Source: a virus (taxonomy: Duplodnaviria > Heunggongvirae > Uroviricota > Caudoviricetes). Taken from it: a stretch of 48,901 nucleotides of DNA. Position 1 is the stretch's first letter, and every line of letters starts with the position of its first letter. Under the pieces are notes generated by a model. It was not told where the DNA came from. It saw only the letters and a program-made list of their open reading frames with translations, and did not search any database. The position numbers were made by a program, and so were the translations under genes. Below are positions 28,686 to 47,889 of the stretch, one piece after another. The stretch lies in IMG/VR virus record IMGVR_UViG_3300045988_155985; one strand, written 5' to 3'.

Positions 28686-28729
28686 TATGATTGTGGGTGT
28701 CTGGTTGGAAAGTGACCAGATATGGAAAC

Positions 28730-28850
28730 AAAAAGCCCGCAGATAAATCTGCGGGCTTCTTGCGACATCCACGGAAAACCAACAATTAACCATGGGCGCC
28801 TCGACAACTCCCATTATACGTTGGTTTTCCGTGGACGCAAGAGCGAACAT
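28730..28850 (-). ncRNA. candidate CopA-like antisense RNA against the repA leader
   Basis: Minus-strand terminator (hairpin 28735-28756 followed by T-run on the minus strand) and a 15-bp-stem hairpin at 28769-28834 just upstream of the repA ATG. Confidence 0.3.
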
Positions 28851-29699
28851 ATGGATAGACCAATGCCGTCTCTACGTTCAGCTTACGTTTGTAATTTGTC
28901 GCCGGAGTTCCAGCCTCCAAAGCACCATACGCACAAGCTGCCGCTGGTGTTATCTGATGCTTTACAGCGCATTAATGGGCGTGATCTTACGTGTGAGGTT
29001 GCGTTCTACGTTAATCAACCGTCAGAGCGGAAGCGCCGGATAAACGAGCATCGTCGTCGGGCGATTAATGCTGTGATCGCTGCGATTTTGCACCATGTAA
29101 ACATCATTTCTAAGCGGGTTCTGGCTAGTGCTGAGGCGTTGGCTGATTTTTGCGGCCTGTCTACCGTATCCGAAGCTGGGAACAAGTCTATAACGCGCTG
29201 TACAAGGGCGTTGTCGCAACTGAAAGCGTTAGGTTTTATTGATTATGAACGTCGCTGGGATCGGGTGAATAAACAGTATTGGCCAGCGAAAATAGAGATT
29301 CGTGATCAACTGCTGGAAACCGTTGGTATTACTGAACAAGCATGGAGACGTGCGGTTAGCCAGAAACTTAATTACTTCAATGCGAAGAATAGCGAACGGC
29401 TTAAAAAAGCGATAACGGAGGCTGATTATAAGCGTATTGTTATTCAGGAGCAGATGGAGAATGTATGGCGTCAGAGGAAGACGGCCAGAGAGATAAAGGC
29501 AAAACAGAAAGCAGCGGAGAGAGCTGCGCGTCTTGTTCGGGAAAAGGGAGAGGCCGAACTTCGTCATCAAATCACTAGAGAGGTTAGCCAGGAATTTGCT
29601 GATGGCATGTATCCTGGAGCTGACCTTGCATATTTACGATCCCTCGTTGAGCAGCGTTATAACAGGTTAAGAAAGACCTGGAAATCACTCCAACATTAA
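28851..29699 (+). CDS. repA: plasmid replication initiator RepA, IncFII RepA1-like
   Basis: Segment GNKSITRCTRALSQLKALGFIDY matches recalled RepA1 GKLSITRATRALTFLSELGLITY; basic C-terminal half; ATG 28851 preferred over track start 28722 because the leader is structured. Confidence 0.7.
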   Translation: MDRPMPSLRSAYVCNLSPEFQPPKHHTHKLPLVLSDALQRINGRDLTCEVAFYVNQPSERKRRINEHRRRAINAVIAAILHHVNIISKRVLASAEALADFCGLSTVSEAGNKSITRCTRALSQLKALGFIDYERRWDRVNKQYWPAKIEIRDQLLETVGITEQAWRRAVSQKLNYFNAKNSERLKKAITEADYKRIVIQEQMENVWRQRKTAREIKAKQKAAERAARLVREKGEAELRHQITREVSQEFADGMYPGADLAYLRSLVEQRYNRLRKTWKSLQH

Positions 29700-30330: not shown

Positions 30331-30342
30331 ATGGAGATGGTT

Positions 30343-30630
30343 ATGGATAAAGATACTGTTTTAAAAATGTTGAATCCGGCTTGTTTAAAAAAAGCGGATG
30401 AATGGGAATCTCCTACATGTGGAGAAGTTCGGGCAGTCATTGGCCTGACCGGAATGAGCGGCTCGCAGTTGGCCAAAAAACTTGGCTTAAAAGATAGTCG
30501 CAATGTTCGCAACTGGCAGATGTTAAAGGAGTCCACATCCAGATCCAGCATTCCGTATGCAGCCTGGGCGCTGCTGTGTTACTTCGCTGGGTTAGGGTTA
30601 ATCTTCATTGATAACAAAACAGATGTTTGA
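30343..30630 (+). CDS. HTH (Xre-like) protein with C-terminal hydrophobic helix
   Basis: Segment MSGSQLAKKLGLKDSRNVRNWQ HTH-like; C-terminal IPYAAWALLCYFAGLGLIF. Confidence 0.4.
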   Translation: MDKDTVLKMLNPACLKKADEWESPTCGEVRAVIGLTGMSGSQLAKKLGLKDSRNVRNWQMLKESTSRSSIPYAAWALLCYFAGLGLIFIDNKTDV

Positions 30631-30653
30631 AACATGCAAATATGAGGTTTGTT

Positions 30654-30917
30654 ATGGAACTTGTACGCAAAACACGCAAAGAGTTCTTGGACCTGTATCG
30701 CATGGGAGCTTTCACTTGTGTTGTGGCTACCCAGGACGAAGTGACAAAAAGCTGGCGGCTTTTTGCTCTCAATAAAAAAGGGATTGCCGTTTTCATTGAA
30801 AAAGCCCGTGGTGGTATCCGCGAATGGGCGGGATTGAATTATGTGGCTGATTTTTGCGCAGCTATGGGGATTCGTCGCTGGGAAGTCCATATGCCAGGAG
30901 TAAAGTCACAAAAATAG
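30654..30917 (+). CDS. hypothetical protein, about 87 aa
   Basis: ORF track (TTG 30627); ATG 30654 has GAGG 7 nt upstream. Confidence 0.4.
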   Translation: MELVRKTRKEFLDLYRMGAFTCVVATQDEVTKSWRLFALNKKGIAVFIEKARGGIREWAGLNYVADFCAAMGIRRWEVHMPGVKSQK

Positions 30918-31106
30918 GGATTTCGCGTCGAAAATGAGGCGAAACTGAAAACGAGATTTCATTAACAAATAAGCAACATAAAAAACGGTGGAAAACGCCC
31001 AGGAAAACATGATCTTTTGAGCGGATTTTTTAGATCCGACAATGAACGGTGATCCGGTGGTGCCGATAACGTCCATTATGTTAAATAGCCCCGTTTTTCT
31101 TGAAAT

Positions 31107-31152
31107 TATAACTCACAGGTTATATAGTTAGTGATATAAACTACAGGTTATA
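31107..31152. promoter_or_regulatory. two operator-like palindromes upstream of the toxin-antitoxin pair
   Basis: TATAAC-N6-GTTATA at 31107-31124 and TATAAA-N6-GTTATA at 31135-31152. Confidence 0.4.
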
Positions 31153-31161
31153 GGATTGAGC

Positions 31162-31509
31162 ATGTGGACGGTACTTTTTAGCCAGCGATTTGACGACTGG
31201 CTAAATGAGCAAGAAGACGCTCTTCAGGAAAAGGTTTTGGCTGATTTGAAAAAGCTACAGGTTTACGGACCTGAGTTACCCAGGCCATATGCCGATACCG
31301 TAAAAGGTTCTCGGTACAAAAATATGAAAGAGCTTCGCGTTCAGTTTTCTGGCCGTCCGATAAGAGCCTTTTATGCGTTCGATCCGATTCGCCGGGCCAT
31401 CGTTCTTTGTGCAGGAGACAAAAGTAACGATAAACGGTTTTATGAAAAACTGGTGCGTATAGCTGAGGATGAGTTTGCAGCACATCTGAACACACTGGAG
31501 AGCAAGTAA
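31162..31509 (+). CDS. RelE/ParE-superfamily toxin, HigB-like
   Basis: About 115 aa; toxin-first order followed by HTH antitoxin; ATG 31162 after AGGA (track start 31156 is TTG). Confidence 0.6.
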   Translation: MWTVLFSQRFDDWLNEQEDALQEKVLADLKKLQVYGPELPRPYADTVKGSRYKNMKELRVQFSGRPIRAFYAFDPIRRAIVLCAGDKSNDKRFYEKLVRIAEDEFAAHLNTLESK

Positions 31510-31808
31510 TGAGAACATTAGATGAGGTGATTGCCAGCCGTTCACCTGAAAGCCAGGCGCGAATTAAAGAAATGGCAGATGAGATGATTCTTGAGGTCGG
31601 CTTGCAGATGATGCGTGAAGAACTCCAGTTATCACAAAAACAGGTTGCTGAGGCGATGGGTATAAGCCAGCCAGCAGTAACAAAGCTGGAGCAGCGCGGA
31701 AATGATTTAAAGCTGGCGACATTAAAGCGTTACGTTGAAGCTATGGGAGGCAAATTAAGCCTGGATGTTGAGCTTCCTACAGGAAAGCGAGTAGCGTTCC
31801 ATGTCTAA
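31509..31808 (+). CDS. HTH Xre-family antitoxin, HigA-like
   Basis: HTH LSQKQVAEAMGISQPAVTKLE; start overlaps toxin stop. Confidence 0.65.
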   Translation: MRTLDEVIASRSPESQARIKEMADEMILEVGLQMMREELQLSQKQVAEAMGISQPAVTKLEQRGNDLKLATLKRYVEAMGGKLSLDVELPTGKRVAFHV

Positions 31809-31816
31809 CATAATGT

Positions 31817-31835
31817 AAGGCCCCATTGGGGCCTT
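31817..31835. terminator. hairpin between convergent genes
   Basis: AAGGCCCC-ATT-GGGGCCTT between higA-like stop and the minus-strand gene stop. Confidence 0.4.
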
Positions 31836-31841
31836 ACTTAT

Positions 31842-32126
31842 TTACTTACCATTTTTGCGGTTTTTTTCGGACTTCATAAGCTGGCTAACGCGCCCTGGTG
31901 TGATATTTAACATGCGGCTTACTTCAGCTTGTGATCCTACTTCCTCTACTAGCGATGCAACATAGCGAGATTTTCCTGAGGAGGTTAATCCATTATATGT
32001 TGCTCGTACGACTTTTCCCTGAGCTTCTCTCATATCAACTAATGCCTGAGCAACCTGCTCAAAACCTTTAATTGTTACTTCTGTTAATGCTCGAATAGCA
32101 TCAATTTCAGATTTTTGTTTAGCCAT
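31842..32126 (-). CDS. putative HTH DNA-binding regulator
   Basis: HTH-like segment QAEVSRMLNITPGRVSQLM; ATG 32126 after GAGGTG. Confidence 0.45.
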   Translation of the reverse strand: MAKQKSEIDAIRALTEVTIKGFEQVAQALVDMREAQGKVVRATYNGLTSSGKSRYVASLVEEVGSQAEVSRMLNITPGRVSQLMKSEKNRKNGK

Positions 32127-32280
32127 TTGGCACCTCAAATTGTTTAAAATGTGTTAATTACAAAATTCAGCCGATACCATGTTCAATGGTATAGCATTGC
32201 TGAAATGTCTTTTTCAAGACCTTGCCAATAAGCTAAACAAAAATGTTTAATGCTTCGCCTAAAAAAACACCAGTTACTAT

Positions 32281-32393
32281 TATTTATATAATTATAGATT
32301 TATATAAAAAGTGCTTTACAGGTGGGAAAAAATTTCCTAAGGTTATACCCGAAACCGAGCGATACCCGCCCTGGTTAAACCGGAGATAACCCG
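32281..32393 (+). promoter_or_regulatory. promoter-operator-leader cassette, copy B
   Basis: AT-rich repeat 32281-32310; -35-like TTTACA 32315-32320; 17-bp spacer with inverted repeat GGAAA-AAA-TTTCC; -10-like TAAGGT 32338-32343; conserved 50-nt leader. Confidence 0.5.
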
Positions 32394-35253: not shown

Positions 35254-35418
35254 TGTGATGATTCCCTTAAAGGTTAAGGATACTCACCACCGTCAGGTTC
35301 CAATCATTGGGTGGTGAGACGTGCAGGGTTGGAACTACCGGACACAATGACGAACCGGCGAGTCTTACGACTCCCCCGCACGCCCCACCATAATTTGGGT
35401 GTAGCAGTGCTTTACGCA

Positions 35419-35440
35419 TAAAAAAACCGCTAACGCGGTA
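35419..35440 (-). terminator. minus-strand rho-independent terminator
   Basis: On the minus strand: hairpin ACCGCGTTAGCGGT followed by TTTTTTT. Confidence 0.5.
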
Positions 35441-35585
35441 TGCGCCATTGTGTCTACGGGGTTCCAATCCCGACCGTAGATTTTGCTACGGCTCGGAAAG
35501 TGTCCACCAATGGCGCATTCATGTCAATACGGCGGGATTTTAACAGAGACAACCACATAGCGTGGGTTTATTGGTAGGCAGAAAC

Positions 35586-35613
35586 AAAAAAACCGCCCTA
35601 TTGAGGACGGTTC
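35586..35613 (-). terminator. minus-strand rho-independent terminator
   Basis: On the minus strand: hairpin AACCGTCC-TCAATA-GGGCGGTT followed by TTTTTTTG. Confidence 0.55.
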
Positions 35614-35760
35614 TTTCGTGCTGATCGGATTCGCGGTCCTTTCAGCATAACGTCGTTGTATAAACAACCACGCAAGCACAAGCGGCGTATCTATTCTTAC
35701 TCAACTGAGGTGAATAGTCCACTATTCATATAAAGAAATTTAGTTCCTTAGTTCATGCAG
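35586..35760 (-). ncRNA. candidate small regulatory RNA upstream of the ant operon (c4-like position)
   Basis: ORF-free leader on the minus strand ending at terminators; self-complementary motifs GGTTCCAA and TTGGAAC nearby; no promoter defined. Confidence 0.25.
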
Positions 35761-35999
35761 AATGAAGTTTTTTAACTTCTTCGGATGTAATTACATGTAA
35801 TAAAAGCATTTGTTATTCCTTCATTATGAAGGCGAGGACGTGTAATATGGCTTGGGGCCTTTTCGCCGATTCGCACCCGGGCACCGACTTTAAGGAAAGG
35901 ATCATCCACTTGCCGTACACGCAAGCACAAGCGGTGTGCTTGCTCTCGCGTCATTTTCGTCGGTGGAGATGCCGTGAAACGGCCTGTAAGGGCCACACA

Positions 36000-36122
36000 A
36001 TGAAAAAATACTACATGTGTATTTTTATCGTTGTTACTGGAGCTTTGTTTACGCCACATGGGGAGGGTTGGAAGATTACTGATAACGCTCTGAATGTGAC
36101 GATAAACATTAGCAGCAAGTAG
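36000..36122 (+). CDS. small hydrophobic peptide, 40 aa
   Basis: MKKYYMCIFIVVTGALF N-terminus; ATG 36000; strong terminator immediately downstream. Confidence 0.3.
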   Translation: MKKYYMCIFIVVTGALFTPHGEGWKITDNALNVTINISSK

Positions 36123-36128
36123 CGATTA

Positions 36129-36150
36129 GGCCCCTTCGGGGGCCTTTTTT
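36129..36150 (+). terminator. rho-independent terminator
   Basis: Hairpin GGCCCC-TTCG-GGGGCC followed by TTTTTT. Confidence 0.6.
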
Positions 36151-47813: not shown

Positions 47814-47889
47814 GGCCCCTTAGCTCAGTGGTTAGAGCAGGCGACTCATAATCGCACGGTCATCGGTTCAAATCCGGTAGGGGCCACCA
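47814..47889 (+). tRNA. tRNA with CAU anticodon (Met or lysidine-dependent Ile2; resembles ileX-type)
   Basis: Perfect 7-bp acceptor stem GGCCCCT/AGGGGCC; D-arm GCTC/GAGC; anticodon loop CTCATAA; T-arm with TTCAAAT; encoded 3' CCA. Confidence 0.85.

Follow-up and report, generated by a model that had tools for sequence, protein, structure and literature searches.

Toxins of the Gp49 family belong to the RelE/ParE superfamily, are encoded by the first gene of their operons and degrade mRNA in a ribosome-dependent manner (PMC11980606). The HigB2 toxin of the Acinetobacter baumannii plasmid pAB120 is an RNase, its antitoxin HigA2 represses its own promoter, more strongly in complex with HigB2, i.e. 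with the toxin as co-repressor, the predicted internal higA promoter is inactive, and higBA2 stabilises an unstable plasmid; the operator of the system was left undefined (Armalyte et al. 2018; PMC5906591). The HigB toxin of conjugative IncC (IncA/C) plasmids is toxic in Escherichia coli and cleaves mRNA, substitution G64V abolishes its toxicity, and the pair acts as a ciprofloxacin-induced addiction module on pACYC184, the 20-mer GATTGCACCTATATTAAGTA being proposed as a non-canonical SOS box of the operon (PMC8265657). In Mycobacterium tuberculosis (Mtb) HigB1, the catalytic residues are carried by the beta2/beta3 hairpin and the beta4-alpha3 loop, and a long C-terminal helix has been noted for the Gp49-like toxin group (PMC9098466). 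Here, a cassette related to these systems was analysed in the IMG/VR virus record IMGVR_UViG_3300045988_155985 (Caudoviricetes), the whole 48,901-nt stretch of which is called the window. The cassette, at positions 31107–31808 on the + strand, is probably an autoregulated type II HigBA operon with a toxin of the Gp49/PF05973 subfamily, serving post-segregational killing on the element that carries it.

The two genes form a compact operon in the region 31100–31840 (+ strand; Table 1), and the limits of the cassette, i.e. the first base of the palindrome O1 and the final base of the stop codon of the antitoxin gene, agree to the base with those given in an initial annotation of this DNA, which had also placed the toxin gene first. 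The toxin stop codon and the antitoxin ATG overlap by one base (TAATG). Such shared-base stop/start arrangements are typical of translational coupling, and the antitoxin is probably translationally coupled to the toxin. A promoter scan of positions 30850–32300 returned one sigma70-like promoter only, at 31100–31128 with a spacer of 17 nt between the hexamers, and found none inside the toxin gene. An in-frame TTG at 31156 was discounted as toxin start, because the 37 homologues begin at a conserved Met-Trp. A strong, G+C-rich hairpin follows the antitoxin gene on its 3′ side and is common to the operon and a convergent open reading frame (ORF). With toxin before antitoxin, one upstream promoter and a terminator after the antitoxin gene, the layout is that expected of HigBA operons. 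No RNA family was found in or near the locus by Rfam scan.

The toxin scored 81.3 bits against Pfam PF05973 (Gp49; cut-off 23.9) over model positions 1–89 of 90, and this was the sole Pfam family matched at E≤0.01; at that threshold no match was obtained to PF09907 (HigB), PF05015 (HigB-like; Table 1 of PMC11980606) or RelE PF06296. Additionally, the toxin matched PHROG 3445, annotated as ‘toxin’, and reached 18.9 bits against NCBIfam TIGR02683 (upstrm_HI1419 addiction killer), below the cut-off of 62.85; no NCBIfam model attained its cut-off for the cassette proteins. Sequence searches against PDB found no real homologue of the toxin, either with the single sequence or with a 37-sequence profile, and therefore the toxin is tied to RelE/HigB by fold search only. 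The AlphaFold (AF2) model, built on 37 homologues and with a pLDDT of 87, contains strands at residues 3–6, 44–46, 55–62, 65–74 and 79–86 and a long C-terminal helix at 91–114. With this model, Foldseek retrieved RelE, HigB and HigB2 structures at probability 1.0 (RelE E = 4.8e-5), and the query-normalised TM-scores were 0.72 to Streptococcus pneumoniae HigB, 0.69 to Mtb HigB1 and 0.67 to Vibrio cholerae HigB2; the modelled fold is that of RelE/HigB.

Toxin residues K56-E57-L58-R59, R68, K87 and K91 are invariant among the 37 homologues and map in the AF2 model to the beta2/beta3 hairpin and the beta4-alpha3 loop; G64 is likewise invariant, both in the 37 homologues and in a four-way alignment. 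On the basis of motif spacing and predicted secondary structure, not superposition, E57, R59, R68, K87 and K91 correspond to E66, R68, R77, K95 and K99 of Mtb HigB1. Both cassette genes showed low non-synonymous divergence (pN 0.06–0.16) from relatives with saturated synonymous sites (pS 0.73–0.90); most dN/dS ratios were not computable owing to this saturation, and the three that could be computed were 0.04–0.07. By its substitution pattern, the toxin gene is under strong purifying selection. At residues 74–82, one deposited Yersinia pestis toxin variant (P0010) has ESDSSGYRS in place of the DPIRRAIVL common to all others, a change within beta3-beta4 that resembles the outcome of two compensating frameshifts or of a sequencing error.

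The antitoxin carries a helix-turn-helix (HTH) of Xre type (Pfam HTH_3, 40 bits, cut-off 23), with the recognition helix at S53–Q62 (SQPAVTKLEQ). Its sequence matches in PDB were Mtb HigA3 (best, E = 4.6e-5), Mtb HigA2 and S. pneumoniae HigA, i.e. it is an Xre/Cro-type antitoxin related to HigA. The Xre-type antitoxin and the HigBA-like assignment of the initial annotation thus hold, the latter by the PF05973 match, the RelE/HigB fold and the matches to solved HigA antitoxins.

Two 18-bp palindromes, O1 and O2, lie upstream of the toxin gene at a start-to-start spacing of 28 bp. Both had been given as TATAAC-N6-GTTATA, which is exact for O1 and slightly generous for O2, where the left half-site has A for C (TATAAA). 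O1 fills the spacer between the −35 and −10 hexamers and overlaps the first two bases of the latter, and O2 begins at about +1, covers the predicted transcription start and the leader, and ends on the first base of the Shine-Dalgarno AGGA. When TATAAC-N6-GTTATA was searched with at most one mismatch on both strands, O1 and O2 were the sole matches in the window; 0.13 such matches per window are expected by chance, and two or more occurred in 1 of 100 shuffles. By their position, their conservation in homologues and the covariation described below, O1 and O2 appear as the palindromic operators overlapping the operon promoter that are expected of a HigBA system.

For comparison, 80 homologous loci were fetched, one genome per species, from Enterobacterales, Pasteurellaceae, Acinetobacter, Oligella/Pelistega and others, with toxin identities of 54–98%; with the window, this gave 81 loci. 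A generic count of 6-N6-6 palindromes with at most one mismatch was uninformative (0.96 matches per control window), and the specific pattern TATAxy-N6-y'x'TATA, with up to two deviations within 150 nt upstream of the toxin gene, was used instead. This motif was present upstream of every toxin gene (81/81), with at least two copies in 81% of the loci; it was found in 7.7% of the control windows from the same loci (n = 1163), and two or more copies in 1.1%. In 58 of the 81 loci the second copy followed 16–37 bp (mode 25) downstream of the first, and in 35 a sigma70-like promoter lay across the upstream copy at the relative position seen in the window. The motif accompanies the gene pair on the chromosomes of many genera, on the 9.6-kb Y. 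pestis plasmid pPCP1, and on IncC and Acinetobacter plasmids.

Between lineages the half-sites vary in their inner bases, and the two arms vary symmetrically: most Enterobacterales have TATAAG...CTTATA, the window and Y. pestis TATAAC...GTTATA, Buttiauxella and Dryocola TATAAA...TTTATA, Acinetobacter TATAGA...TCTATA, and Kluyvera and Rosenbergiella TATAGC...GCTATA. Base 6 of the half-site tracks the antitoxin residue aligned to K59 of the recognition helix, Lys being paired with C in 19 of 24 half-sites, Gln with G in 151 of 202, and Ala with A in 42 of 50. Lys59 arose separately in at least five groups, whose nearest outside relatives (identity measured outside the recognition helix) have Gln, and each of these groups has C at position 6. 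For the window, the nearest non-Lys relative is an antitoxin of Klebsiella sp., about 90% identical, with Gln and the half-sites TATAAG/TATAAT.

The Lys/TATAAC variant is common to the window, Y. pestis pPCP1 and Mtb HigA3 (6LTY/6LTZ, PMC7340258), the best solved-structure match of the antitoxin. The recognition helix of HigA3 has Lys at the same position (VSQARVSKLES, in the window ISQPAVTKLEQ), and around its −10 box the higBA3 promoter contains TATAAC-CTAGAG-GTTATA (oligo DNA-4, PMC7340258), the half-sites of which are identical to those of O1. The operator class thus spans mycobacteria to enterobacterial phage-plasmids, which is a modest extra result. Conservation, covariation and the HigA3 match together make a strong, though indirect, case for O1 and O2 being HigA operators in which each half-site is read by one helix. 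As the motif was upstream of every homologue examined and covaries with a recognition-helix residue, the two palindromes are very probably binding sites of the antitoxin itself, in line with their designation as operators in the initial annotation.

A residue-to-base correspondence of this kind is not described in PMC5906591, PMC8265657 or PMC7340258. That residue 59 sets half-site base pair 6 in the HigA partners of Gp49-type toxins (Lys/C, Gln/G, Ala/A), and has been switched repeatedly, is a general proposal that is about as likely as not. If true, each residue/operator switch would create a variant whose autoregulation is insulated from that of related cassettes sharing its cell, operators could be predicted from sequence for thousands of HigBA cassettes on plasmids, and the ‘SOS box’ proposed for IncC higBA would be a HigA operator. 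The IncC higBA promoter (L085, pKP-14-6-NDM-1, 649–681) contains the palindromes TATAGG-TTTGAA-TCTATA and TATAGG-ATTGCA-CCTATA, which share two bases (start-to-start 16 bp), and the second of them overlaps the proposed 20-mer, the exact sequence of which (PMC8265657) was present in the fetched locus. The ‘non-canonical SOS box’ may instead be a HigA operator.

Table 1. Features of the cassette and of other parts of the window, in order of position.
Feature	Position	Strand	Description
IncFII-family RepA	28722–29699		150 bits
Two small ORFs	30331–30917		99 aa and 96 aa, overlapping by 4 bp
Conserved upstream stretch TTATGTTAAATAGCC	31076–31090		10–25 nt upstream of the −35 hexamer
−35 hexamer TTGAAA	31100–31105	+	Promoter scan, 10/12 match
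O1 TATAACTCACAGGTTATA	31107–31124		TATAAC-TCACAG-GTTATA, perfect 6-N6-6 palindrome, 18 bp
−10 hexamer TATAGT	31123–31128	+	Promoter scan; overlaps the final two bases of O1
O2 TATAAACTACAGGTTATA	31135–31152		TATAAA-CTACAG-GTTATA, 18 bp, one mismatch in the left half
Shine-Dalgarno AGGA	31152–31155	+	6 nt before the toxin ATG, read from the sequence
higB-like toxin gene	31162–31509	+	115 aa, ATG start, Gp49/PF05973 subfamily of RelE
higA-like antitoxin gene	31509–31808	+	99 aa, Xre helix-turn-helix
Hairpin GTAAGGCCCCATTGGGGCCTTAC	31815–31837		10-bp stem, 7 G-C pairs, terminator-like on both strands
Convergent ORF	31842–32138	−	98 aa, PHROG 15590, function unknown
C4 antisense RNA	35307–35395	−	Rfam, above gathering score
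isrK	35420–35492	−	Rfam, above gathering score
ryfA	35853–36150	+	Rfam, above gathering score
tRNA gene	47814–47886	+	Rfam RF00005, 67 bits

The window is a 48-kb myovirus-type phage-plasmid. An E. coli plasmid of 48.6 kb, identical to it at 99.8%, is annotated with ParA and a full myovirus head, tail and lysis gene set, and with one toxin-antitoxin pair only, which is the cassette. The window is also collinear with vB_YpM_39/41/44, deposited genomes of phages isolated on Y. pestis, which match its first half at 99% over 81% of the length and its second half at 97–98% over 64–71%; there the toxin carries the label ‘higB2’. The capsid gene was found on 59 PLSDB plasmids (58 from Escherichia, all non-mobilisable), and the cassette with its flanks, at ≥80% coverage, on 74 plasmids, a count that fits the cassette being a regular part of the phage-plasmid lineage. 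Literature on this phage-plasmid type (HQ103, enterotoxigenic E. coli) returned nothing on this element. An addiction role of the cassette, as proposed in the initial annotation, is plausible, since on this phage-plasmid an IncFII RepA is encoded 1.4 kb upstream of it; the role is backed by the stabilisation of plasmids by IncC HigBA and A. baumannii HigBA2 (PMC8265657, PMC5906591), and it fits the position of the cassette beside repA on an element with no other annotated toxin-antitoxin pair.

The layout of the genes, their family, the fold, the conservation of the operators and the covariation of residue and base were observed here. To these a model of action can be attached, for which the toxicity of HigB, its neutralisation, the binding of DNA, the co-repressor role of the toxin and the stabilisation of plasmids are taken over from the characterised relatives. 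The single sigma70 promoter would yield a short-leader bicistronic mRNA from which the toxin is translated first. HigB, as a small endoribonuclease of RelE fold, would cut mRNA, most likely at the ribosome, and would be bound and neutralised by HigA. HigA dimers, alone or with HigB as co-repressor, would bind both palindromes, each recognition helix reading one TATAAC half-site and Lys59 specifying the C:G pair at position 6; with O1 in the promoter spacer and O2 over the transcription start, expression would be kept low and self-limiting. Upon loss of the plasmid prophage from a daughter cell, the labile antitoxin would decay and the stable toxin would arrest growth.

Several points weigh against this reading as an autoregulated addiction operon. 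O2 is imperfect in the window and its left half is degenerate in pPCP1, and the residue/base covariation comes from related sequences with only about five independent Lys events. For HigA3, a gel shift was seen with a 20-mer containing one half-site plus spacer (Kd 11 nM) and not with a 24-mer containing the full palindrome (PMC7340258). Deletion of higBA2 from its native A. baumannii plasmid caused no plasmid loss (PMC5906591), and addiction is therefore context-dependent; no published study was found of the window pair or of its 98%-identical copy on pPCP1. With regard to the toxin, the equivalents of N73 and F93 of Mtb HigB1 are G64 and G85 by motif mapping, i.e. these two residues are not conserved, and hhalign of the toxin profile against Mtb HigB1 gave a meaningless 13-column match, for which reason the catalytic mapping rests on motif and secondary structure. 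Mtb HigB2 and HigB3, of the same Pfam family, are not toxic in Mycobacterium smegmatis and are without several catalytic residues (PMC9098466), and Pfam membership alone therefore does not establish toxicity. The toxin could accordingly be imagined as attenuated or inactive like HigB2 and HigB3 (PMC9098466, PMC5906591), the pair then acting mainly as a self-controlled HTH regulator that carries its partner and does not kill, a view to which the missing N73 and F93 and the best PDB matches of the antitoxin, Mtb HigA3 and HigA2, can be added. Yet the toxin is 55–57% identical to two toxins proven toxic in E. coli, G64 and the basic residues are invariant, and the very low non-synonymous change despite saturated synonymous sites is unexpected for a decaying gene. 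Because of these conservation data, an inactive toxin is decidedly unlikely.

The identity of the protein that binds the palindromes can be questioned in the same way, since they are AT-rich and resemble −10 boxes, and they might be sites of a phage repressor, RepA or a partition protein, or chance AT-rich repeats. The motif, however, changes in step with the recognition-helix residue of the antitoxin and occurs nowhere else in the window, and no LexA-box-like site was found near 31050–31170 at the cassette promoter; because the motif accompanies the gene pair wherever it has entered unrelated replicons and chromosomes, another binding protein is very unlikely. It is rather unlikely, in turn, that the main role of the pair is defence, in which shut-off of host transcription by an incoming phage would let the antitoxin decay and the freed HigB arrest the cell (abortive infection). 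A weak match of the toxin to the C-terminal domain of PADLOC NsnC (27 bits, E = 6e-7), the recurrence of RelE/ParE-fold toxins in defence loci (PMC11980606) and chromosomal homologues, where addiction is less relevant, speak for such a role. However, no PADLOC system model fits the whole pair, the antitoxin matching generic HTH models only; what was demonstrated for the characterised relatives is stabilisation of plasmids and not a block of phages (PMC5906591, PMC8265657); and homologues are spread over many conjugative plasmids, with the cassette of the window located beside repA. As speculation, abortive infection, also raised in the initial annotation, would protect both the lysogen population and the resident phage-plasmid, and it is compatible with addiction. 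The reading as an autoregulated HigBA operon with an addiction role is thus retained as the probable one.

Outside the phage-plasmid lineage, a 98%-identical pair was identified next to pla on Y. pestis pPCP1 (9.6 kb; L084, NC_005816.1, 7789–8429; YP_RS22250/22245), the window counterpart of which is 31076–31808; O1 is intact there, and the degenerate left half of O2 reads GGGGTAAG.... A 9.6-kb scaffold labelled Amphibacillus jilinensis (L004, NZ_JH976447.1) is identical to pPCP1 over the 139-nt upstream region and the antitoxin, and in this Bacillota assembly it is probably a contaminant. The stretch TTATGTTAAATAGCC is conserved in pPCP1 and is found with small changes also in Symbiopectobacterium (L007) and Phytobacter (L008), the sequence farther upstream being unrelated; it may be a UP-like element or the left boundary of a mobile cassette. 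On the opposite side, similarity to the vB_YpM phages ends at about 31798, just before the convergent ORF, the C-terminus of which is weakly sigma70-region-4/HTH-like and which seems to be a variable insert.

In the interval from repA to the cassette, the 99-aa ORF of the overlapping pair weakly resembles HTH proteins (‘mobile mystery protein A’, 22 bits; PHROG 8351) and the 96-aa ORF belongs to PHROG 4595, of unknown function; the two could be a second regulator or a toxin-antitoxin-like pair. The region 35307–36150, with isrK, ryfA and C4, the antisense RNA of the P1/P7-type immunity system, may be the immunity region of the phage-plasmid. One tRNA gene was identified near the end of the window.

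The cassette belongs to an established family of known gene order, mode of action and use in plasmid addiction, and the toxin is named in public annotation; the exact pair appears unstudied. Our findings leave the understanding of how such systems work unchanged. They suggest that a widespread family of E. coli phage-plasmids of about 48 kb, relatives of which were isolated as phages on Y. pestis, probably owes its stability to the cassette. The same cassette, apparently unstudied there, adjoins pla on pPCP1, the virulence plasmid of Y. pestis. Moreover, the operator motif together with the residue-59/base-6 correspondence provides a testable rule for the prediction of HigA operators in a family that about 2000 sequenced plasmids carry, among them IncC resistance plasmids and Acinetobacter carbapenemase plasmids. 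By tblastn, toxin homologues were found on 1981 PLSDB plasmids, 1291 of them conjugative, with Acinetobacter (590), Klebsiella (349), Escherichia (282) and Salmonella (221) as the leading genera.

Among the known systems, the classical HigBA of Proteus vulgaris Rts1 shares with the window the toxin-first operon and, as predicted for the window pair, has a ribosome-dependent RelE-family mRNase and an HTH antitoxin dimer that binds two palindromic operators (O1 and O2) overlapping the promoter (PMC12266136), whereas its toxin is of another Pfam family and its operator sequences and antitoxin architecture are unrelated. The Pfam Gp49 founders, tad-ata and N15 gp49-gp48, have the same Pfam family, toxin-first order and Xre antitoxin, and N15 gp49-gp48 is also carried on a plasmid prophage, where the module reportedly stabilises plasmids, going by the title of Dziewit et al. 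2007 (cited in PMC5906591). They were rejected as closest relatives: the toxin gave no BLASTP alignment with N15 gp49 at E≤100, tblastn of the phage collection with the toxin at E≤1e-3 did not return N15, the antitoxins are 35% identical in the HTH only, and the TATAxx-N6-xxTATA motif is absent from the N15 upstream region.

Considerably closer is IncC HigBA, with 55% identity in the toxin and 46% in the antitoxin. G64 of its HigB aligns gap-free with G64 of the window toxin, the residue numbering being in register, and it is the sole toxin-antitoxin system of its plasmid backbone, for which the window appears alike. It differs in having Glu at the residue-59 position, where the window has Lys, and in its putative SOS box, which has no counterpart in the window promoter. 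Mtb HigBA3 (Rv3182-Rv3183) in turn shares the toxin-first order and the Gp49-domain toxin, and differs in its distant phylum, its chromosomal location and its single reported palindrome. The A. baumannii HigBA2 system, compared as the copy on an 11.1-kb A. baumannii plasmid whose identity with pAB120 was not confirmed, is 57% (toxin) and 60% (antitoxin) identical to the window pair and likewise has the toxin-first order, a Gp49-domain toxin and an Xre antitoxin. Its operator is of the same class (TATAGA-N6-TCTATA, about 30 bp before the start codon); however, this locus has a single operator, the half-site TATAGA and Ala at the residue-59 position on a small mobilisable plasmid, whereas the window has two operators, TATAAC and Lys59 on a phage-plasmid.

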